Assembly: GCF_018977255.1 (NCBI RefSeq)
Contig: NW_024704742.1
Span: 62,250,001 to 62,314,000, forward strand
Reading direction: 5' to 3'
Length of the DNA: 64,000 nucleotides
From: Callorhinchus milii
Taxonomy: Eukaryota
The position numbers were made by a program, and so were the translations under genes. The notes below the pieces were generated by a model, which did not search any database, was not told the DNA's origin, and was given only the letters and a program-made list of their open reading frames with translations. This document shows positions 13,001 to 64,000 of the stretch, in pieces (position 1 is the stretch's first letter; each line of letters starts with the position of its first letter).

Positions 13001-16000
13001 TGGCTGCCGAGAGGCGGATTCTCTATTTGAGAAAGTCAGCGGAGCCCATAAGCAATATTTTGTGTTTCCCTTCCAGAAATATAACAACATTTACACAGCT
13101 CCTCTTTCATGTTGGAAGGACATCTCAAACCTTCAACACTGTCAGCTGGCACCTGAGCTGGATGTGGGAGTCAAGAGAGTGGGATGGTGAGTGGAAAAGA
13201 TGACCAAAAACTTGGTCAAAGAGTTAGTTCTTGACTGCCTTGAAAGAGGGGAGGAAGTCAGAAGGATTCCAGGAATGGAACTTCAGAGAGTGAGGGCAAA
13301 ATGGCGATGGTGGGGCAGATTGGGTGGGGGGGGGACATGAAACAAGCTGGTGTTTGCTGGGCTATGGGAATGGCCAGTTTGGGAGGTTGTATAGGTGTAG
13401 GGGGTTGGAATGAAGGATATAGAGAAGTTTTTCACTGGGGAAAGAGGGAGCTTTCTGTGAGGAAACTGCACGGCACTCGATGTCTGTCCTCGGCTCCCCC
13501 CCCTGCGGCAGCCGAGGGAAGCTACGATCGTCTGTCCTGACAGTGAGCCATAAAACACTGCCCTCAATTCTCCTTTCTTTCTGCTCTCTCACACTTTTTG
13601 TTTCTCTCTCTCCTTCTCTCATGCTCTCTCTCTCAATCACTCTCCCCTCTTTCTTGGAATCACTCTCTCTCTACCCCACAACTCTCATGCACTCCCTTGC
13701 ACACATTCTCACTCCCTCTCACATCCTCTCTCCTGTCACTCTCTTCCCTCTCACACGCTCATTCTCTCTCTGCTCTCTCCCCACATCTCTGTCAATCACT
13801 CTCTCTCCCTCTCTCTAACACAGTATCTCTGTCATTTCCTCTTTCTCTCTCCTCTCTCTTATTCAATCACTCTCTCCCCCTCCCCCAGATTCCACCCCCT
13901 CCTCTCAACCCCTCTCTCTCCTAATCAGCTGCATGGGGCTCTATCTGCAGTGGCAGGAGCTAGCTGTTGCTAAGGACGCGGTTGGTAAGAGACGTGCTTG
14001 CCTTCCTGACAGACGGCAGCAATGGCCAGCATTATATTGACTCTCCACACTGTGTCCTCCCAACCACCTGCCACTGCCATGAGAGAACATTCACTGGGGA
14101 TGGAGGGAGCGGAAATTGGAATGTTGGAAATGGTGTCAGGACGGATAAAATGACCTGCCGGGCCAGAGGCGGCCAATGGGCCAACAATTGGACCACGATG
14201 ATCGAGAGCAACCATTGTCAACCTCAGAATGGGAGAAGGTGTGGGATACCCCATTTGTCCACTATATGCTAAAGCTACTTCATGGAGTATATTAAACACC
14301 CCATGACCCCAAGAGGTGGCCTTTGCTTGACAACCCATCTTGGAGAAGCAGGGATCGTTTCACAACATTGTTGGACATTTCTTAAAATCTACAGCTTCTG
14401 GGACTCAATCCTTAGCACTGCATAAAGATAAAAGTAAAGTCTACCTTACATTCACAGCTAGGAAAAAAAACTGGCTCAGAAAGCAGTCCTGGTTGCCAGA
14501 AAATGTATCCCATGGCAGTGGAATCATACTCCACCATCCAAAGGATGGCACCCCTGACAATGCAACACATCCCCAAACACTGCATTTGAATGTCAGCTTG
14601 GACGATGTGAGTTCAAGTCTCGACGTGGGATTTGAACCCACAACCTTCTAACCCAAAGACGAGAGTGCTACCATTGAGCCAAGCTGATAGACGAACTTTA
14701 GACTATTCTCTAACAAGTCCTCCAACTTCTTTTTGGAAGTATTGGCAACTTCTTTTTAATGCACATTACCTTGTAGGATATTTCAAAGTTTTCACCTCCC
14801 CAGATCTGAAGACCAGGATCATACAGCCCCAGTTCAAAAAAGAAATCTCTTTCAATAGCAAACAACCCCCCAGCCATGGCAGGGGATCTGTGAAGGTCAT
14901 TGTTAAAAGAATACACAACAAATTAGTAATTTCAATGAAAACAAATGATACAATTCTTGTATTTTTACTGTTAGATATCTTCTTAACTATCCTGAGTTTC
15001 AAAAGCAAAATCTAAATATATAACAATTTAAATCTGCAGCAGTGCACTCTTCCAAGAAGCAAATTTCTGGTCAATCTCCTAAATCAAGAAGTAATCAAAC
15101 ACCAATATAGAATCATAGAATATTACAGCACAGAAGGAGGCCATTGGCCCATTGTACCTGTGCCAGCTCTTTGGAAGAGCTCCCCAATCAGTCCCACTCC
15201 CCTGTTGTTTCCCATATCCTTGCAAACATATAGATCCTTTAAAAAGTTTAATAATCCTTGCATTTAATACAGCCCTTTATCAATCATCGAGACATCATAA
15301 AGGGCTTCACAGGAATTTACTGTGACTGCATGTGTAGGCAAATGCAGCAGCCAAGGTGCACACAGCAACATCTCACAAACAGCCATGAAGAAAATAGCCA
15401 ATTCTGATTGGGGGGTTGTTGGCTAGGATACTTTAAATAGTGCCAGGGGATTTTTAACGTCCACCTGAACAAGCAGTTGGTTTAAAGGCTCATCCAAAGG
15501 TCGGCACCCCCGATAATGCAGCATACCCTCAGCACTGCACTATAATGTCAGCCTGGACCATAGGGTCTCCAACTAGGCAATCACCACCAGGTGATGCTTT
15601 CGCTCATGATCAAAAAGACAAAAGAGGGAGCAATAGAAGCTTGGTTATTGAGTCCAATTGAAAATGAAGCCAGATGCACAAAGTATTTCATGCATCTCTA
15701 AATATAAACTTTAATGTTTAAACTGTGGTAAATATTACTCCTTCCTCTTGTTTTAATTGAGCATGCGAGAGATTCCACCTAGCAATATTTAACTGGTTGG
15801 AGACCCCTGGCCTAGACTGTGAGTTTGAAGTTTCAACCTTCTAACTCAGAAACGATAGTGAACTGGAACTAGGCTAACAAGTACAACAGGGAACCATACA
15901 TATTGCAAATGAAAAACCTCTGATAATAGTAAAGCACCTTAATTACATACAATTACCATCTATTAGGTATAAAACTTAAAAAAGAAAGCAATACAATTGA

Positions 16001-19000
16001 ATCCAATTCATGACTTTTGACCTTTTTTGCCCAAGAAGAATCTTTTGTTGTTCCCGCTGTACTCACTGATGTCAGTGCAATTAGACTTGTATGTTACAAA
16101 GGTATTCAAATACAATATATTGGTTGCTTATTGTTGATTTAAGATCAGGCAATTGTTTCAGATTGTTTTTCATGTGGTTAACTATTTGAATGCAAGTGTG
16201 GAACCATTGATCTTCATTTCCTTATGCTGCGCTTTGCCCACAGAATATACAGTCAATTCACTAAACAATATATTCATGCCTTTCTATGTTTCCATGATAA
16301 TTTCCTTTATGGCCCCAGTTTGATCTGATGTATAAATTGAATTTCTTGCTCCATGTTAAAATTATGCTTTACTCCAAGTTGTATCCAACATAAGCCCCTA
16401 GTTACTTCCCCCATTTTACAAGAATAATGAAAGTTCAAAGGTTCTAAATTCGAGTCATTTTACATTGTATATAAAAAAAGCAACATGTGATTTGTAATAC
16501 TTCAATCCATTTCTTTTTGTTAAAATAACATTTTTAAAGCACATTCAAATTCAAGGAAGTAAAGATTTATTAAAAGCTGATATTGCACTTTGCTTTTAAG
16601 AAGTTAAAGCAATTAGGAAATTTGCCTTACTATCTAGAATTGCATGCAGTGTCAGACTTCATGCAGAGTCAAAGCACTTTTTATTGTCAGATCTGCAGAT
16701 TATTAAAGTCTCATGATCAGGTAAAGTGAGCCCCAGGTGATAAGAACAAGGAAAAACTTACTTTTGTCAGGGAGTGGGAAAAGGAGAACCACTTGCACCT
16801 TATACAAGGAAAACCCAGAGAAAATTTGAGGATATCAGAAAGGAAAAGAGGAATTAAGTTAAAGCAAACCGCACTCACTAAATTCCAAGGAGCTATTAAT
16901 ATTTAACTTTCACATCAGCCATACTGAATATAAGTGCATGTAGACAAGAGTAGGAAGCACTATATTTACAGTGACCTTCATTTTCCAAATTAGTAAGAAA
17001 TAACATTTATGGTAATGATGTCAAAATGCCTCAAAGTACTTACACTAATTATTGTCAAGTGCAGTAATTGTTTTATGGTTACAGATTTTTTTAAAAAACT
17101 TGAAATCCAGCAGTAACTACAACCTTGTCTTATATAGATTCACTGGGCCTCAACCCATGAGAAGAAAAGGCTTTAATCTTTTGGTGAGATGCCCAAAACA
17201 TCCCCAAACATTGTTTTTAACATAAAGCCCTACAAATGTTTGCAGGAACACAAATGTGAGCGATTTGCTTTAATTAACAACACAAACATGTAAACAAAAT
17301 AATTAATGCATGAAAACATCTACTATCTGAAATACTGTGATTAGAACTACAGAATACTTTTTTTCTTTAGAGAAGATTAGTGCTGCTTCTTATTTTCTAC
17401 AAGACCGAACATATTATTGCAGGTAAAAACAAAAATTAAGGATCGACCAATATTTAGTGCCAGAACACACAAAAAGTTTGATTCTCGCAAGCTATAACAC
17501 AGTGCACTATTGTATATGAACTACTATGGGATCCTGTATATCACAGAATTCAGTATTTGTTGAAAACATTATGTTTTCAATGAATCCATATGGATCTGTG
17601 GTACATGACAGTGATGGGTAGGATTATGTGTCTGGGCTATGGACAGGAGGATGGTGGCAATTCTCTCAAGCATTTCATACTGAGTTGGGCTATGCATCAT
17701 GTGGTTGGCTTAGAAAAATTCTAGTGCCTGTTGTCCACCTAGCAAGATTTCAAACCTGTGTTTGTGAAATGTCTAATTACCAATTTTTGGGGATTGGCTG
17801 AGTCTCAAACAAATTATAATGTCCAACTAATGGTTTCACAACCAGTGAAGCCTCACCATTAAATCCCAACCTTACTCAAAATGAGGTTGTGATACCTTGG
17901 TTCATTGCACATGTGCACAGCCATCGAGCAAACTTCTTGAGTGCCTGCCAATCCCAATATTATTTAAGCTTTAAACGAATCAATGCTATCTCTGTAGTGA
18001 CTATCTTCTGGGGGTGGGGGGATGTGCTGAGGTAAACAGTAGTTCATTGGGATTGAACTGGCTCCAGGATGACGAGTCTGCCAATAAAATAGTGGAATTG
18101 CCTTCTGTTACTGACTGAGTTGTCCAGATCCTGAGTCAAGTAGGTCCACAGTACTGTTGATGATGGAGCAGGGAACCAATCAGCAGGACTTGGTAGGTAC
18201 AGAGCAGTCCCTGGGGAATGGGAATTTTTCTCACTTGGCTCCCAGTTGATCAAATATGACTGTAAAAGTATACTGTATAATTAAATTACTCTCAGCAAAA
18301 AAAGTGTAATTTCATTCTGTTTTGGGATGATTCTCTTGCAAGATATTCATTTTTGCGATTTTGACAGCATTTTGCACCTTGCCCTAACATTAATATTATA
18401 TTTGGGATCAAAACAATCAAATTTGGGAAGGAGAAGCCCAATTCATACTTCCCGTTTTACAATCCATTAGAATCACATTAATTTACAGCACAGAAGAAGG
18501 CCATTCGGCCCATTCTGTCCGTGATCGTTCTTTTAAGAGAATCCTTTCAGTCCCATTTAACTGCCATTCCCTATTTACTCCTTTTTAGATATTTATCTAG
18601 TTCCCTTTTGAAAGCTAATATTGAGTTGATAAACAAGTGAAACACAAAATTGAATATTAATATTTTTTAATACCTGCCATGTGCTCAATTTCCTTAAACA
18701 CTTGTAATGCTGCCCTGAACATTCCTGGGCCTAGACTATGAATGCCTGAGAATTTTCAAATAACTCAAAAGACTACAAGCCAGGAGACAAGGCAATATTG
18801 GTCGATCCCTACTGACAATAATTTATGTTAGAGGCTATTAGAATTTATATTAGAAATTTTGTTAAATATGCAATTTGCTTGAGGCTCTGGAAATGATTTT
18901 AGAAATCATTTTACTGTAGCTTTTTTTAGTTCATTGTGAGCATTTTAATTCTGATAGGGAAAGCAAAAACAGCGAAATACACAAATATTGTTAATATAAT

Positions 19001-22000
19001 AGAAAAAGAATCTTACAAAGATACTTCGCTAGAATGAGTAACTTAAAGAAAAAGTGACAATGATCAAATGTGATCAAGATTACCGATACGGTTCAGTTTT
19101 ATGTTTTCTCCTTTCCTTCTCCCGCTTGGCCAAAGGGACACGCTTCCACAACATGCTCCAATCCCATGCTCCTCTAGCAAACCCATCTTCGTCACCACCC
19201 CCTTGAGGTGATATCTGGTAATTATTTCCACTTATGCCATCTATGAGTGGCACAGTACATGCAGTTCTGCAGATTTGGCAATATCGTTGTTGGACCAGGG
19301 AAGGTAGGTGAAGGGATCCATGCGTCAAATACATAATTGGAATTAGGGTGAGGGATGCAGCAGAAGGATCCATGCGAGAAAGGGAAAATGACAGGACTTA
19401 GACATGTCAAACAATTCAATTCATCAGTAATTACCGATAAGGCTCAGTTTTATGCTTCCTTCTGGCCTTTTCACGACTGTTTAACGGCATGCGTTTCCAT
19501 AGTAAGCTCCAATCCCAGGCCCCTCTGGCAAAACCATTCTCATCCCCACCTTGTTGTGGTTCAATGGTAAAGTCATTGCCATCTATGTAATCTATAAGGG
19601 GAACTGTACATGTAGTTCTGAAACAAATAACAGATACTGAAATAGATCACAATTAAGTGTATTCCCCATCAGATAGCACCTGCACATAAATTCTGGTGTG
19701 TTCAGTCAACAATTAATAAATAAACTGACTTAAAATAGGACACTAGAAAATAAGACATTTTATATCTTATTAAGTGCTGAACCCTGGATGCACAGAAGCT
19801 ACACAGAAAGATGCAGCAATTTGAATTACTGTTATCTAAAGCTACTGTGTAGAATCATTTAGTTAGTTTAATGTGCAATGTTTAAGTTCTGTGATGATAA
19901 TGCTGTGGTTATGGGTTCAAATGAACTGTAGCAGCTGCACTGCCACATTAGCTTTGACTAGGATAATACTAGCTTTGACTTTGAATAGAATACAACTCTG
20001 AAATAATATTCTAGCCACTGTTCAACTAGATTTCAGATAAAATTGCCTTGGGTTACCTGTCCTTAGCGATGGGAGCTACGAGTGATGCGTACCAGTTAGG
20101 TCCAACTTCACAATGTGCATCAAGATATATTAACACCTGAAAACACATTAGATAACTATTATTTAAATAAATCCATAACTCAGAATTTGTCAGGAACAAC
20201 AATAATATTTAGGTACAGCGCCTTTCATGTCAGGAGGATATCTCAAATGCTTCACAGGATTTACTGTAAGATGTAGTCATTGGGTATTTTATAGACGAAC
20301 ATGACAGCCAATTTATCCACAGAAATGTTCCACAAAGAGCCATGAAATTCTCTTCTCTTTTCATACAGTGTTGTGATATCTTTAATTTCCACCTGAACAG
20401 GAAGACCGGATCTCGATTTTAACATCTGAAGGACAGCATCTCAGAAAATGCAATGCAATACATTGAAGTGTCAGCCTGGACTATGTGAGTTCAAAGCCCT
20501 GACATGGGGCCACAGCCCACAGCCTTCTGACTGAAAGATGAGCTCCAGGACACCTGGGTTAGGAAGGGAAACATGCATGTCTATATGCAAATGTCCATGT
20601 AATAATAATAATCCTTGCATTCGAATTAGCGCCTATCACAACTTTGAGACATCTCAATGCGCTTCACAGAATATACTGTAAATTGAATTGCGCACAGCAA
20701 TAAACAGCCATGGGTTGAGTGACCAAAATATTATGATTATTTATTTATTTTGAAGGCATTATTACTCCCTGTCGAGTCTTGTAGTTTAGTGGTTAGAGCA
20801 CTCGTTGCAAGCGAGAGGACCTGGGTTCGATTCCCGGGCAGGGCGAAACGTTGTGCAAGTTTCCTTACTTCACACACCTCTGTTCACCTAGCAGTAAGTA
20901 GGAACCTGGTTGTTAGTCAATTGGCGAATCGCTTTCCGGGGGTAATAATCCCTCAAAAATAAAATTGGTCACTCAATACACGACTGTTTGGAGGACACTG
21001 CTGTGCGCAATTGGCTGCCGCATTTCGCTCATAAAATACAGTCAATTCACATTACAATATATTCTGTGAAGCGCTTTGAGACATCTCAACGATGTGATAA
21101 GGCGCTATATCAAATCCAAGGATTATTATTATTTATTATTATTAGTTGTGATTCCAAATAGCTATTGTCATGTTCAAGTCAACACTCATTTTCTAGGCTC
21201 ACAAGAACAGCACTGTGGTATGCTGTCTCAGCGCACAGCAGTGTTCCACAAACAGTCATGGACTGAGCGACAATTTTTTTTTTTGAGCGATTATTACCCC
21301 CGGAAAGCAATCTTCCAAATCTGAGTTCCTACTTACTGCTAGGTAAACAGAGGCATGTAGAGTAAGGAAACTTGCTTAAGGTTTTGGCCTGCAGGGAATC
21401 AAACCGGATCTTCTCACCTGTGGTGCGAGCGTGCTAACCATTACACTCCAAGACTCCTCACTACAGGACTCTACAAATATATGTGTGGTTTGAAAGAGGA
21501 AGGAATTTACTGTACTTGTCCAAGCTTTACTTTATTTACTTTTACTGTACCTGTCCAAGCTTAGCCTTTTGAGCACCAATGCTTCTTGCTTGAATTAACC
21601 CTTCTCTCCTTTCATTTCGAAATACTTTGACTAATCCATTCCATTGTTTCAGGTATTCCTCCAGTCGTTCTTTTAAATGAACTGCAGACAAGATCACAAA
21701 TCAGTCATAAGAATGATAATTATTTATGAAAAAAATGCAAAAATGCAATTCAGTTCTTTCCTACCCATTTTAACACTTAAAAAGGCTGCAAAACTAGTTG
21801 TGAATTATTCACTGAAATTACAATGTTTCTTAACAGATTCAATTTGATGATGCACCACATTTTTATCAACAGGAGCTGGTACAGTCAGACCTGCATTCCT
21901 AGGGCAAGTCAGAACACATGAAATGAATGGCTTCATTGTAACTTGTAACATTAACACCAATTTGACACATTGAAGGTAGACCTTGAAGTAAATTGTAGGA

Positions 22001-25000
22001 TGTAGATTATTTTATCAAATATTTAAACCAATACCAAACTGTATGTTCTTAAAGGTGTCAGTTCAGCTCAGTTTGTGACACTCTAGGTCAATAGGATGTG
22101 CATTGAAGACCCACATCATAGTCCAGGCAGACACTCCAGCGCAGTACTGATGAAGATACTTTCTTTTGGGTGAGACTTTAAGCACAGTCCGATAGTGAGC
22201 CCCTGTTCACATGCATGATAAAGAACCAATGTCACTATTTGAAAAGAGACGGGAGTTTTTCCAGAATCATAGCCTAAGGTCATCCAGATTAATAATAATA
22301 ATAATCCTTGCATTTGATATAGTGCTTTTCACATCTTCTAGACGTCTCAAAGCGCTTCACAGAATATGCTGTAAACTGAATTGACTGTATATTTGTGGGC
22401 GAAACGCATCAGTCAATTGCGCACAGCAATGTCCCACAAACAGTCGTGGATTGAAAATGAACAATTTATTATTGTTTTGTTTTGGAGGGATTATTATTAG
22501 GCGTGTGCAGTAAGGAAACTTGCCCATGGTTTTGCCCTGCCTGGAATTGAACCCAGATGTCTCGCTTGCAAGGCGAGCGCTCTAACCACTGAGCTACAGG
22601 ACTCCAGATTAATCGATCATTTGCTTTATTGCTGTTTTGTAGGAACTTGTCAGCACAAATTGCTGCCACGTTTGCTTACAAAACAGTCACTACACTTCAT
22701 AATAATTACTTTGCAACATTTTGGCATCAATACGCAGTTTTTTATTTCTCTATCTATAACAGGAGCAAATATTGTTTGGTCAGTTACGTGTCTGTCACCT
22801 GCAGAAACCCATCTCCATGATTAAGAGTATCCATATCAGGCAGAGTTCCACAAATACGTGTCACCTACATATGGAAATTTCCCTGTGTCTAGAATGGATT
22901 GTGTGCTCTCTCCCCAGAGAAAAACACTATAATCTAGAAAGTATTAGCATGGGTTGGAGAGAGCCACAATTTAGAGATCCCAGACTGTGCATTGGAGCAC
23001 TGTGGTGTTTAAAATATACAAAACAATATTCAAATGATTTGGGATTTCATAAGCATCACAATACAAAATATTTACATGAAACTCATCTTTCTTTCAAAAA
23101 ACTGAGAGAAAATTCACTACTAACTTTACTGCCATTAGGATCTGTGGCTCTGAGATAAATAAGGCCTATGAATGCCAAAAACCTGACAGCCAGCTCAACT
23201 ATTACCAGCTCCTATTATTGTTACGACCACAATTGTGGTGTTTGTGCAAGAAAGCCTTGCTAATTTAATACAGTCGTCAGCTCACCTCTGATGTCACTTT
23301 CTATACATTGCACACTGTAACAACTGATAAAGCACCTATAACATTTAGAATATCTTAAAGCACTTTACAAAGTTTCTGTGTAGTGAATGTATTTGCAGTC
23401 ACGCACTGCAGCCAATTTGATTACAATGACAGAGCAATTGAAGAGCTAGGTCTTAAAGGTGGTCTTTAAAGGAAGCAAGGTTAGGAGGTGAGTTAGAGGG
23501 ACTCCAAGACTGAATTCAGCCTGATTAAAGGTCATCAACCTGAAATGTTAATTCACTTTCCTCTCTCCATAGGTGCTGCCTGACTTGCTGAGTGTTCCCA
23601 GCAACTTCTGTTTTTATTTTGGAACCTTTAATGATTTGGACAGCACTAAAAGAAACAATGAGGGAGAGGAAAGCAAAATATGTCTGAAGGTTAAGGTAAT
23701 ATCTAGACTAAGCTACAGTTTCAGTGAACACCTGTCACTTCTCCATTGGGGTAGTCAGATTGGCTAAAAGCATAAGAACCTTCGGAAACCTACAAAAATT
23801 GGAGCGAGGTTCAGATTTACCTTTGGTTTTAATTGCGTTCCAGTTCAAAGCCATAAAGCTTAAAAACCTGTGATTCAAACTGGAATGATTCAGTCACGAG
23901 TTTAATTCTGGATTTCTTGCCCGTAGCCACTAGAAATTCCAGGGACATTAAAATGTAATGCCAGCCCGCAATGACAAACATGGTAAATGATGCCCTCTTG
24001 TGGGTATCCTAAAAGATGAATTATTCTATTTGTACAGGCCACAACATCAAAAAATCATATGAAGGAATAAAATAATGACTTAGGTATAGAGTAATTACAT
24101 TGATACGCTTTTACTTTGTACTGAATAAGAATAGTGTTTGAATGCAAATAACAATATATTACCTTTGTTACTGAAGTCATCAATCATAACAATTTCTGCT
24201 AGGTATTTTCTGGGCGTCCGCTTGATAACACTGTGGACAGTCCTCATAAGAGTCGACCACCCTTCATTATGGAAGACGATAATGATACTAGATGTTAGCA
24301 AGTTCTCGTCATAATGCCAATACTTGCACCTGGAAAGAATAAAATAATACTCAGTAACCTAATGGTATTTTACCTCATTTTTAGCAATGAAAAATTAAAA
24401 GTAGGGCAATATGCAGAATCTAACGCAACACCATTCTTTAGACCAATCGTTTCTTCACAAATTAAGTTGGAAAATAGTTAAAGATGAGTATCCTCAAAAT
24501 GGAAGTCTTGAAAATTCTTTATTACAAACCAAAAACAAGGAGAAAACTGCAAAATGTTATGGTACAACATGAAACATATGCATTCATTTTAATTAAACAT
24601 CGAAATCCAATCCAACTCAGACCCATAAACAAAGACAACAGATATTTCTTCCCACTTCTTTCAACATGCAGCAACTACATGAATCACTGATTCACATGCA
24701 ATAACTGAATGAATCACTGACTCTGTATAAAAGCACTGTTGTTTGTTTGAATTTTGTTATTCAGCTGTACCACACAGCAATGCCTTGCTGTTTTTCAACT
24801 GTATTTTAATTTAAGAACTCGGTTGATGTTAAATAAGACAACCATTACCCTTAGACAAGAGGCTCCTTCACCTCACTACCTGTCTAGTACAGTGTTGGCA
24901 AAAGCACGGATTTGGCATTTCACTTCAGACACAAACTTAAAAAATGAGCACAAAAAAAGAGACCTAGTCATAGTTGTTGGAAATCGTATCCAACGTATAT

Positions 25001-52000: not shown

Positions 52001-55000
52001 TGCTGTCCTTTGGATGAGATGTTAAACTGAAGTCCCGTCTTCCTGTTCAGGTAGATGTTAAAGAACCCATTTCACCACCTAAAAAAAGAGAATTTCTCTA
52101 ACAATTCCCCAGATAAAATTGGTCAGTTACTTCATGTCTGTATGTGGGACATTGCTGTGGGCGAATTTGCTGTCAGGTTTCCAAACCAATATGCAGTTAC
52201 TACCCTTCACAGTAACATCCTGTGAAGGGCTTTGAGATGTCTCAACAACTTAAGGTGCTATATGAAATCGAAGGATTATTATTATTATTGAAGTGGCAAG
52301 CTAGACTGTGACTTCAAAGTCTCAACGTGGCTGTCAATGATCTTAGATAACATTATAGCCGATGAGGAAAAAAGGATACCCGGAAAAAAACTGGGAAGAT
52401 CAGAGATTTTAAACTGTGATGACTGGGAATGTGCTATGAATGACAAGTGACAACACCATTAATAGAGTAGCCAGAGGCCTAATAGAAAGCAGCAATAAGA
52501 GGGACTGCTGCAGATTTAATCACTTTAAAACTCAGTCTTTGACTGTCTTTCCTGATCATACCTGGGCACCTCTTACTTTCCAGGTTGTTTACTGGGCTGA
52601 TTAAGTGTTGAATTGCTTTTCCAAATTGCTCATGTTGAAGTAATTGTTCTACTAATATGCTGCAGCAATATCTATAAGAACAAGATGCACTCCTGCAATG
52701 TTCTGCTGCTGTGATTAATCATTATACCTTTATGTCAGGGAGTAAGCAGAGTGCTCTTACAGATTAACTTGATTTTGCTCAATTAATAATAATAATAATA
52801 ATACTTGCATTTGATATAGCGCTTTTCACGTCGGGAGGACATCCCAAAGCGCTTCACAGAATACACTGTAAAGTGAAATGACTGTATATTTTGTGGGCGA
52901 AACGCAGCAGCCAATTGCACACAGCAGTGTCCCACAAACAGTCATGGATTAAGTGACCAATTTTTTTTATTCACGAAAAAAAACGATCCACCCATCAACT
53001 AACAACCGGGGTTCCTACTTACTGCTAGAGGCGTGTGGAGCAAGGAAACTTGTCCAGGAATCAAACCCAGGTCTCTCGCCTGCGAGGCGAGTGCTCTAAC
53101 CACTGAGCTACAGGACTCAGTATCCATAAGGATTATTATTTTTCATTATAATTTTTTTTAAATTCGGATTTGAGCACATAGTGTAGATTAACAACACACT
53201 GCAGTACCAGAGGAGTGCTGCATTATTAGGGATGCCGTTATTTGGGTGAGACATTGAACTGAGATCCCATCTGTCTGTTCAGTGGACGTGATAGATCCCA
53301 TGCCACTGTTTGGAAATAAACAGAAGTTGCATTCAGTATTCTGATCAACATCGTTTAGATTCACTGATCATTCACTTTAGGATTATTTGTGGATTCTTGC
53401 TATGCCCAAAATGGCTGCCATGGTTAGCTACAAACACAGTTATAACATGACATGAATTATGTCAATGTCTTGAGATTTTTTAATGTTATTGGACTTTATT
53501 TAAATGCAAGGATTATTATTGGCCAGATCTGATATAAACAGTTAGAGAAAGCCCTTTGGGCAGTGGAACTGAATTATTTTATTGTGAGTGAGGATTATTT
53601 TACTTATACAACTTCAAAAAACATTACTCTCCTTTTCAGGGTTTTGAAGCAAGTTGAGATATCTTCCTGATGTAAAAGCCACTACATGTAAATTGTTCTT
53701 TATTTATTTCTCGATTCTGTAAATCCTTCCATTTTATATAACGCCTTATCATGTCATCAAGACATCTTCAAAATGCTTCACAGAATATACTGTAAAGTGA
53801 ATTGACTGTATAAATTGCCACCTCTTAAAAGGAATATGCTCAAATTGCCTACCTGCAGGATAGTTGCGTTTCGCCTAGAAAGTTTACAGTCAATTCACGT
53901 TACACGAAAATTCTGTGAAGCGCTTTGAGATGTCTCCAAGACGTGATAAGGCGCTATATCAAATGCAAGGATTTCTATTATTACCTTGCCCCAGGTGAAC
54001 AGAAGAAATTGCCCTGGATGGATGAAAGACTCATATTTTGCCTCACAATCTTGCCCAAGTTTGGGAGTTGCGTAAAGAGGTACCATTCTTGTTTGGTAGA
54101 AAATCACTGTTGCAATATAATGGTTCCAGCCCAACTGCTCAAGGAGTTCACTCCTTCTAATCCTTCTGCTTAGGTACAGGAATGAGTATGCCACTCTTAA
54201 GCCTGATCTGAGTTTTTTAACAGGATTTTTTAAAAAAACTTACTCACTTTACATAATACCTTATATTTTAGATACTCCAGACGAGACGCTATCTGCGAAA
54301 AAGGGTATTATTTATTGTCAATGCAAGTTATTGTTGTTATTTCCAAGTATTATATATTTTTAAAATGCCCCAATTAATTATGCATTAATTAATGCATAAT
54401 TTTATAAACTGCTCATAAAATAAGTCATTAAACTTAGTTAAATAAAACTCTTTGTAATGAGGATTCCATCACAATTCAATCAGCAGAATTAACGAGTTCT
54501 CTTTTTAAAACACACATAATTGTGAGGATGTGGAATTGGCTGGGGTCTAAGCACCGTGGTATGTCCTCCTGATGTGAAAGGCACTATACAAATGTAATTT
54601 GTTGTTATCATTCTTGTTATGTGGGAAATCACTGTAGTAATTGAGGTTAGGAATGCCTTTTGCATCAGCTTGGCTTAGTAGCACTCTCACCTCTGAATCA
54701 ACCTCACCCTGTTCCACTGGCTCCCCATCCCCCAAAGGATAGAGTTCAAAATCCTTGTCCTTGCCTTCAAAGCCTTCCACAGCCTTGTTCCTTCCTACCT
54801 GTGTGACCTGCTAACACCGTATAAACCTGGCCGTCCCTCCGCTCAGCAAGCTCCCGCCTGCTCCAAGTCATCCACACGGCCCACCATTGGCGGTCGGGCC
54901 TTCAACCTCTCTGCCCCCACCCTTTGGAACTCCATCCCAGTCCCTTCACCTTGCTCCCTCCCTTGCCTCCTTCAAGGCGCATCTCAAGACCCTCCTCTTC

Positions 55001-57057: not shown

Positions 57058-57375
57058 GGAGTCCTGTAGCTCAGTGGTTAGAGCAATCGCCCTGCAAGTG
57101 AGACACCTGGGTTAAATTCCAGGCAGGGAGAAACCTTGGGCAAGTTTCCTTACTCCACACGCCTAATAATAATCCCTCCAAAAACAAAAAAAATAATAAA
57201 TTGGTCATTTTCAATCCACGACTGTTTGTGGGATACTGCTGTATGCAATTGGCTGCCATGTTTCGCCCACAAATATACGGTCAATTCACTTTACAGTCTA
57301 TTCCGTGAAGCGCTTTGAGACGTCGAGAAGACGTGAAAAGCGCTATATCAAATGCAAGCATATTATTATATTATA
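57058..57375 (+). mobile_element. tRNA-derived SINE, short variant, full length, inside a minus-strand CR1 tail
   Basis: ggagtcctgtagctcagtggttagagc...gcgctatatcaaatgcaagca(tta)n; aaatg on both sides. Confidence 0.9.
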
Positions 57376-62238: not shown

Positions 62239-62745
62239 ATAATAATAATAATAATCCTTGCATTTGATATAGCGCTTTTCACGTCGGGAGGACGTCCCAA
62301 AGCGCTTCACAGAACACACTGTAAAGTGAATTGACTGTAATAATAATAATAATAATCCTTGCATTTGATATAGCGCTTTTCACGTCGGGAGGACGTCCCA
62401 AAGCGCTTCACAGAATATACTGTAAAGTGAATTGACTGTATATTTGTGGGCGAACGCGGCAGCCAATTGCGCACAGCAATGTCCCACAAACAGTCGTAGA
62501 TTGAAAATGACCAATTTATTATTGTTTTGGGTTTTTTGGAGGGATTATTATTAGGCGTGTGGAGTAAGGAAACTTGCCCAAGGTTTCGCCCTGACTGGAA
62601 TTGAACTCAGGTCTCTCACTTGCAAAGCGAGTGCTCTAACCACTGAGCTACAGGACTCCACGAACTCCAGCAATGTCCCACAAACAGTCATGGATTGAAA
62701 ATGACCAATTTATTATTGTTTTTGGTTTTGGAGGGATTATTATTA
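62239..62745 (-). mobile_element. tRNA-derived SINE, short variant, with duplicated tail and duplicated middle segment
   Basis: Full copy 62340-62659; extra tail copy 62239-62339; extra body copy 62668-62745. Confidence 0.85.
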
Positions 62746-64000
62746 AATGTAAAAAGGTATTGATTAAACCAGTCTTAATTTGTTTGTTGTTATTATGAAA
62801 CTAAGTAACTGAATTTTATAAATATTTCTCTCTTGTTGCTGTATCTATCCTTTTCAACTTGAGTTTGTAAAAACAATTTTAGATAAACATAACTGAAATA
62901 TTTTGCTACTGCCCCATCCTTGGCTGCTGCCTGCTGATATACGCATAGATCGAAGGCAAAGCAGTTCTGGACACTTTGCTGAGTCAGAAACATGTGACTG
63001 TCATACAGCCCTACGTACTGCACCTCTGAGATGAATCTCTTGGTTTCAAAACTGTTATTCAGTCAATTTTTAAACAATATTCCTGTTCTCCAAGCAATCA
63101 GCTAATATGTTTCAAGTTTTATGTGCGTCATTTTCTTATGTTTTGGTACACCAGTAGATCCCACAGGATTTAGAACAAAAGGAACATTGCCTCCAGCTCA
63201 GAAGAGAGAAAGTGAGCAGTCAGTGGAGGCTTAATTATTTTTACAAAGTGGTGAATAATTGTAATGTACTGTTCAGAAGACAGTGGAGGTAAATTATGTC
63301 AACAAATTCAAGAGGGAGTTAGATAGCTATTTTGAAACTGTCCTTCGGGACTGCACTAAGAAAGGATGAAAGACACACATTCTAATCTCTCTTCAATGAT
63401 AGCAAAATTGCAATGCAGGTTAAGCTTGTGGCGTATAAGAAGTGTCCAAAAAGTTGTCATTCATATTTCAGAACTCTTTGACCTTTTACAAAAGGGTTCC
63501 TTTGATTGCTTTGCAAAGTTCTATGCCAAGCAATGAGGTGTATTTATGGTAAAAAGGGAAGGTACCAACAAGGAAGGAGGGCTGTGGCTTGTAGTGGAGA
63601 ATCTACGCTACCAACCTGTACACACAGTGTGTTAGGCCCTGGGCCTCTCTTGCTGTTTGCTCGACACTGCGACTGTGGGCAGAGTGGCTCCGGATTGTTT
63701 CACAAAATGCGTCTCTCAATAGAACCAATTAACCCATCTGCAATTTCCTGCAAAATCTACCAAATTTCGACAAAAGCCCCGCAATTTTAGGCAAACATTT
63801 CCACACTCTTCTATTGGTCCAGATAATGATCAACTCGCGACTATTCTCCTTTGGGGTGACATAGGCAAGGTCTCCTTGGGGCTAAGCTCCCTAATTGAAT
63901 ATCCAAATCAAATCCATCCAGTGGTCTCAGTCAACCAGTTGTTGAACCAGGCCGGTGTGTAACCTAAAGCACTGTTGATGACTGACCAATCAGTCTGACA

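Follow-up and report, generated by a model that had tools for sequence, protein, structure and literature searches.

Known exon pairs and distant branch points

The tandem exons 2 and 3 of rat Tpm1 reportedly go back to Smith and Nadal-Ginard (1989) as the cited source. In this pair, a branch point near the upstream exon stops joining of the two exons, and regulators bind between branch point and acceptor, those tested being PTB and MBNL (PMC3643581). In OGDH, the tandem homologous exons 4a and 4b are separated by a short, size-restricted intron with branch sites mapped 25–41 nt from the donor, followed by a pyrimidine tract and an AG-free zone (Kralovicova et al. 2021, PMC7969005). Some leakage occurs with ectotherm constructs of OGDH, and double inclusion shifts the reading frame (PMC7969005). 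A donor-to-branch distance below 50 nt is described as critical (PMC11291888), and such spacing is predicted to lock about 9% of the human clusters (PMC5740500). AG-free zones of at least 100 nt with a candidate branch point and tract at their 5′ end define a statistical class of 838 among 67,334 human exons, and the share of human zones of at least 100 nt estimated to mark distant branch points is only a half to a fifth (Gooding et al. 2006, PMC1431707).

The human GALNT7 gene contains a tandem exon pair, catalogued as tandem exon substitution event 84 and dated to Vertebrata (Martinez Gomez et al. 2021, PMC8373072); the GALNT7 gene identifier is also in the list of Lam et al. 2021 (PMC7954323). 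In the part of the catalogue available, the rows of event 84 carry neither a splicing mechanism nor a proteomics mark (PMC8373072). What is already known is thus the human exon pair, as a catalogue entry, and the established TPM1/OGDH mechanism. Our search found no paper joining the two, and the genome-wide human branch-point tables of Mercer, Taggart and Pineda may already hold the branch point of this intron. GALNT7 was not found in the available supplement of PMC7969005 or in ten supplement files of PMC5740500, and the best-matching branch-point papers listed did not mention it. Here we describe the pair in Callorhinchus milii, in which RNA contigs show the two exons used singly. This is likely enforced by the short intron that separates them, through a predicted main branch point less than 50 nt from the donor of the upstream exon (probability about 0.6).

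The GALNT7 locus and its twin exons

The analyzed stretch of 64,000 nt (in the following called the window) carries the gene for N-acetylgalactosaminyltransferase 7, GALNT7, identified by the match of exon 6b to PDB 6IWQ (E=2.7e-28). Exons 2–12 were mapped by tblastn to the minus strand of the window, on which all exons, motifs and candidate sites given below by window position are located. The common upstream exon 5 (20057..20136) and the common downstream exon 7 (14770..14887) enclose exon 6a (19435..19617, 61 codons, DYIDG..PQQGG type) and exon 6b (19084..19266, the human reference type, with TGCATG at its 5′ end at 19263-19258), and joints in RNA contigs connect both twin exons to exons 5 and 7. 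The twins are each 183 nt long, in phase 2 and 70% identical to each other, and a genome-wide search with the exon peptide yielded two matches, exons 6a and 6b alone. Their orthology to the human pair follows from the match of 6b to PDB 6IWQ and of 6a to the human alternative peptide; exons, order and the length of 61 residues each are the same as in event 84 (PMC8373072). The 6a peptide is 95–97% identical to shark and skate proteins. The swapped segment belongs to the catalytic domain, corresponding to human residues of about 323–383. One DNA-like run also covers the region in a single contig, with one difference in 1351 nt; this run may be the assembly's own source.

Exon 6a, the minor-reference exon, is the more conserved one, with a mean pairwise identity of 86% (88 distinct peptides) versus 80% for 6b (108 distinct peptides). 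Near-invariant Y, D, Q and L occupy its positions 10, 12, 22 and 38, at all four of which 6b differs. Lampreys have two GALNT7-like genes. The 6a-type exon was present in all five retrieved proteins of one (P0104, P0249-P0252), and the 6b-type exon in 10/10 region-containing proteins of the other (among P0218, P0268-P0276), which looks as if two splice forms had been split between gene copies.

Exon usage in RNA contigs

We used 8 of 12 runs, all as assembled contigs, with their RNA nature guessed and their tissues coded; such contigs miss rare forms and do not show which exons share a transcript. Run X1 had the joints exon 5-6a (depth 37), 6a-exon 7 (24.6), exon 5-6b (41.3) and 6b-exon 7 (48.9), as well as one unspliced contig (13.5) in which 6a, the intron and 6b are continuous. 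Neither a spliced 6a-6b joint nor an exon 5-exon 7 joint was present among the X1 contigs. Since the depths leaving 6a (24.6 plus 13.5) approximate the 37 arriving on it, there is little room for a third path. Mixed cell types could yield the same contig picture.

In the other runs the exons appeared one at a time. Runs X3 and X4 contained the 6b-exon 7 joint (X3 also exon 5-6b), with 6b alone, and run X12 contained 6a-exon 7, with 6a alone. Run X5, from the same sample as X12, had exon 5-6a on one contig and a piece of 6b on another. Run X2 covered part of 6b alone, unspliced at the 6b donor, and run X10 had no coverage. Altogether, the 6a-6b joint was not found in the six runs taken to be RNA that cover the exons; for X3, X4, X5 and X12 this rests on the listed contigs accounting for the bin depths, amid repeat noise.

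A message of exon 5-6a-retained intron-6b-exon 7 would be an expected by-product of a steric block. There is a weak hint of it in X1, because the intron stretches by the 6a acceptor and by the 6b donor are uncovered. The unspliced contig is, however, just 1.3–1.7 times as deep as other intronic contigs (7.8 and 10.7).

Several repeats lie in the surrounding introns. High-copy transcribed repeats occur in introns 4 and 6 (window 20600-21375, 15100-15280, 16240-16262 and 18498-18600), and copies of a related element whose core is free of AG are located at 22387-22518, 52884-52998, 57145-57294 and 62438-62773. Intron 7 contains a simple stretch of 274 nt (13548-13821) that is CT-rich on the plus strand and GA-rich on the sense strand of the gene.

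Predicted proteins containing both exons

Tandem both-exon proteins ranked top in both of our protein searches, and many of these are gene predictions. The two exons occur together in RefSeq isoform models of at least 16 species: the reptiles Natator, Carettochelys, Emydura, Alligator, Pituophis and Ahaetulla; the mammals Myotis, Rhinolophus, Molossus, Sciurus and Manis; and the fishes Pungitius, Sparus, Hippocampus, Kryptolebias and the catshark Scyliorhinus torazame. Of the 14 species of sharks and rays seen, the catshark is the single one with such a model. RNA reads usually underlie RefSeq isoforms, and the both-exon models may stem from rare reads or from the chaining of protein alignments. 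As the ectotherm constructs of OGDH leak as well (PMC7969005), leakage in GALNT7 does not exclude membership in the steric class.

The intron between exons 6a and 6b

The intron (19267..19434; GT..AG) is 168 nt long and is read through by the unspliced X1 contig. Its AGs are at intron nt 37-38 (19398-19397) and at the acceptor (nt 167-168), with no others, leaving an AG exclusion zone of 128 nt (19269..19396). An earlier note on this DNA had described this length, the single internal AG and the zone, all with exact coordinates. It had also contrasted a pyrimidine tract behind the CTAAG motif with a poor one by the acceptor, which we confirmed at 84% in the next 25 nt versus 50%.

Zones of at least 128 nt precede 7 of the 4144 minus-strand AGs of the window, the 6b acceptor counted among them, and in shuffles of the intron's own bases such a zone had P=0.0125. 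At the ten other GALNT7 acceptors measured (exon 2 left out), the AG-free zones span 17–72 nt. The zone of exon 6b is hence modestly beyond chance, and 6b resembles the human large-zone exons in having a zone of at least 100 nt with a candidate branch point and tract at its 5′ end (PMC1431707). Intron nt 39-91, given their pyrimidine-rich base composition, would be AG-free 47% of the time (P=0.47), so that the zone cannot choose between a branch point at +37 and one at +92.

Human branch points follow the consensus yUnAy, with the tract 4–24 nt downstream (PMC2367711). We scored candidates for a U at −2 and by the downstream pyrimidine fraction (given as tract). The branch-candidate adenines at +28, +37 and +92 proposed earlier are where they had been placed. 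Candidate +28 (GTTTGAC, 19406..19412, A at 19407) has a tract of 0.72. Candidate +37 (GTCTAAG, 19397..19403, A at 19398) has a tract of 0.84 and lies directly 5′ of the strongest pyrimidine tract of the intron (19376..19396). Candidate +92 (CCCTAAT, 19342..19348, A at 19343) has a tract of 0.52; it is a full YNYTRAY match and fits yUnAy better than +37. Accordingly, +37 combines the best downstream tract with a poor +1 base (G), and +92 is the opposite on both counts. Their predicted probabilities of being unpaired are alike (0.81 and 0.83). The earlier note had overlooked further full yUnAy matches at +86, +110 (tract 0.72) and +126 (tract 0.64), which together with +92 make four beyond 50 nt from the donor.

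The intron also contains an internal duplication (window 19375-19363 and 19323-19310), with GCATGGATCC and TTTGAC occurring twice each. Of the duplicated GCATG copies, the skate peptide described below fits the second only.

Conservation of the intron across vertebrates

The intron between the twins is 137 nt long in human (from the catalogue coordinates of event 84, PMC8373072), 168 nt in C. milii, about 175 nt in skate and 187–264 nt in bony fish. The comparison across vertebrates that had been suggested thus yielded a short intron throughout those seen (137–264 nt). The other introns of GALNT7 in the window range from 439 to 31,552 nt. Intron DNA was compared between the window and one teleost locus (L003), a single orthologous locus from a metagenome scan (1 of 214 candidates); other fishes entered through read-through peptides and human through coordinates.

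The teleost intron is 259 nt long, with AGs at +11, +14 and +18. Next comes TGCTAAC, whose A is at +27 and at which an AG-free zone of 238 nt starts (shuffle P=0.0036), together with a tract of 80% pyrimidines, an arrangement that matches a textbook distant branch point, as a prediction. Conservation of the AG-free zone had been named as a test; at 238 nt, the zone of this one teleost is longer than that of the window. Read-through peptides from 16 bony fishes, L003 among them, run from 6a into the intron as unannotated open reading frames. Thirteen of them are compatible with TGCTAA, versus 12% of shuffled peptides, in three different frames; the A falls between +27 and +35 in 12 of them and on +60 in the other one. 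Nine of the 16 are compatible with TGCTAAC (null 3%). These fishes are related and not independent, and counts from peptides reflect compatibility and not DNA. In peptide P0238, an insert resembling a simple repeat after the 6a donor shifts the branch motif to +60. It is a natural spacer experiment, for which more double inclusion is predicted in that species.

For skate, we used the read-through peptide P0186, whose 6b part is identical to the little-skate protein. It implies an intron of 175 nt with four blocks collinear with the window, judged by best-codon identity: CTAAG plus tract (18/21, about +48 in skate), the +92 block (19/21, about +99), GCATGGATCC (19/21) and the 3′ end (18/21). 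The null is 1% for at least 18/21 and 0.16% for at least 19/21. The peptide permits CTAA at two places only, +48 and +99, the former at the edge of the 50-nt threshold. It is incompatible with the +28 motif, and +28, +86, +110 and +126 do not appear conserved. In cartilaginous fish, the near (+37) and the far (+92) candidate therefore both appear conserved by peptide comparison, the main reason why our confidence in the steric explanation stops at the value given above.

Between the window and L003, the global intron alignment was uninformative. The 5′ block alone did not beat shuffles (P=0.48), and the 3′ block did so weakly (P=0.037). The L003 branch region fits the +37 and +92 regions of the window equally well (12/23), so these comparisons do not tie individual sites to one another across fish groups.

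GCAUG motifs next to exon 6b

Two intronic GCATG motifs had been overlooked in the earlier description. Copy 1 (19371..19375, intron nt 60-64) is incompatible with the skate peptide. Copy 2 (19319..19323, intron nt 112-116), of RBFOX type, has counterparts in skate, L003 and bony fish. Of 17 bony-fish peptides that extend into the 3′ part, 14 are compatible with a TGCATG no more than about 60 nt from the acceptor (null 15%). A conserved (U)GCAUG hence appears to adjoin exon 6b, as in exons regulated by RBFOX, and GCAUG is a common motif. RBFOX is abundant in nerve and muscle cells. Bound downstream of an exon it usually enhances, and upstream it represses (PMC11874969), so that, with GCAUG upstream of 6b, use of 6a would be predicted in RBFOX-rich cells. 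In 12 of the 15 supplement files of PMC5989265, the sole Galnt7 row concerns a different exon of 461 nt, and a search for a link between GALNT7 and Rbfox gave unrelated reviews only. In L003 (549-558), GCATG overlaps the branch heptamer TGCTAAC, where direct competition between RBFOX and U2/SF1 could occur; no such overlap is present in the window.

Comparison with OGDH and Tpm1

Using PF16078, we located OGDH exons 4a/4b of C. milii (G000:C28:4491527-4491311). Their intron is 116 nt long with a zone of 78 nt, a candidate at +45, an unbroken long tract and no TnA candidate after +51, a layout that agrees with the one described for other fish (PMC7969005). GALNT7 resembles OGDH in its tandem homologous exons, the short intron and, by prediction, a branch motif less than 50 nt from the donor ahead of a tract and an AG-free zone. 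Compared to OGDH in the same genome, however, the GALNT7 intron is longer and less clean, with a conserved rival site and GCAUG motifs; the teleost GALNT7 intron is nearer to the OGDH pattern than that of the window. Branch sites are mapped in OGDH but predicted in GALNT7, and double inclusion, which shifts the frame in OGDH (PMC7969005), would remain in frame in GALNT7. With Tpm1, the locus would share a branch point near the upstream exon that stops joining, whereas the regulator suggested by motif conservation is RBFOX rather than PTB or MBNL (PMC3643581).

How the twin exons may be kept apart

In the explanation that we favor, the site of U2 assembly would be +37 (or +28), on the tract of high pyrimidine content just downstream. 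When exon 5 is joined to 6b, the spliceosome would scan 128 bases without an AG before reaching the acceptor of 6b. A single spliceosome could not form from U1 bound at the donor of 6a and U2 bound at the near site, and 6a would hence pair with exon 7. Messages with both exons would keep the intron, meet a stop at once and be removed by NMD or nuclear retention. Proteins bound within the AG-free zone would set the choice of exon; the likely one is RBFOX, which at the conserved GCAUG would repress 6b and favor 6a. The lock is probably leaky via +92 or similar sites. A putative branch motif plus tract less than 50 nt from the donor recurs at +28/+37 in the window, at +27 in L003 and at about +48 in skate. 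Branch choice and the donor hairpin discussed below apart, the anatomy, the single inclusion, the short intron and the conserved motifs are observed.

The steric reading with a distal branch point had been proposed from the window sequence; the single use of the exons in RNA contigs, the short intron and the donor-proximal motif in the teleost support it, whereas the apparent conservation of +92 in skate, the non-discriminating zone and the both-exon RefSeq models speak against it. The statement that NMD cannot enforce exclusivity applies to a spliced 6a+6b message, which is in frame. It does not apply to the retained-intron form, which has an in-frame TAA at intron nt 2-4 and which NMD could therefore clear.

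The main competing possibility, doubtful in our view, places the branch point at +92 (or at +110 or +126), where joining of the twins would be physically possible and exclusivity would reflect reciprocal regulation with one exon per cell type, by RBFOX at GCAUG and, on the CU tract, by PTB or proteins of TIA type. The caveat that CCCTAAT is far enough from the donor to permit joining had been raised before and stands, given the skate-conserved block, the full consensus match and its unpaired state. The intron has two GCATG copies (shuffle P=0.002, although both belong to a local duplication) and exon 6b has one at its start, which together with the bony-fish motif near the acceptor and the both-exon models would fit such regulation. 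However, the tract behind +92 is weak, and neither the conserved short length of the intron nor the teleost +27 motif at the start of the AG-free zone is explained by it. Run X1 moreover uses both exons at similar depth, without double or null inclusion. The CTAAT itself may be a protein-binding site, presumably of QKI/SF1 type, instead of a branch point.

Readings in which both sites function appear improbable. A near branch that blocks joining and a far one at +92 that allows it, with RBFOX selecting 6a, 6b or the in-frame double form, is unlikely. Slightly less likely still is a switch in which both branches work and +92 yields a regulated in-frame 6a+6b protein whose 61-residue duplication lowers enzyme activity. 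Consistent with it, chimaera and skate have two candidates that appear conserved, and both-exon models exist in catshark, turtles, alligator, snakes, bats, squirrel, pangolin and four teleosts, but the 6a-6b joint is absent from the six covering runs, and the teleosts with such models lack a conserved second site. We regard as very improbable that RNA structure separates the exons by hiding the 6a donor in a hairpin. Folding predicts one of 8 bp over this donor (19421..19440, −6.7 kcal/mol), yet the region as a whole is not more stably folded than its shuffles (z=+0.37; teleost z=−1.27), the hairpin is missing in the teleost, and a hidden donor would block 6a-exon 7 joining too. Incompatibility between U12 and U2 splice sites was rejected because the donors are standard (GTAAT), and frame-shift NMD of the spliced double form because both exons are multiples of 3 and in frame.

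Implications for GALNT7

Skipping of GALNT7 'exon 6' is reported in endometriosis, and the twin exon is unmentioned in the available part of that report (PMC13039441); the event may partly be a switch from 6b to 6a. If the two-position arrangement with RBFOX selection were true, the choice of branch point would act as a tissue control on O-glycosylation, with 61 residues of the catalytic domain duplicated in the double form. If the favored steric explanation is true, GALNT7 would join the small set of exon pairs locked by branch-point spacing. It would then be predicted for human that deep-intronic variants within the 137-nt intron, such as new AGs, branch changes or insertions, alter GALNT7 isoforms, and the conserved GCAUG is a testable candidate regulator site for the isoform swap in the catalytic domain.
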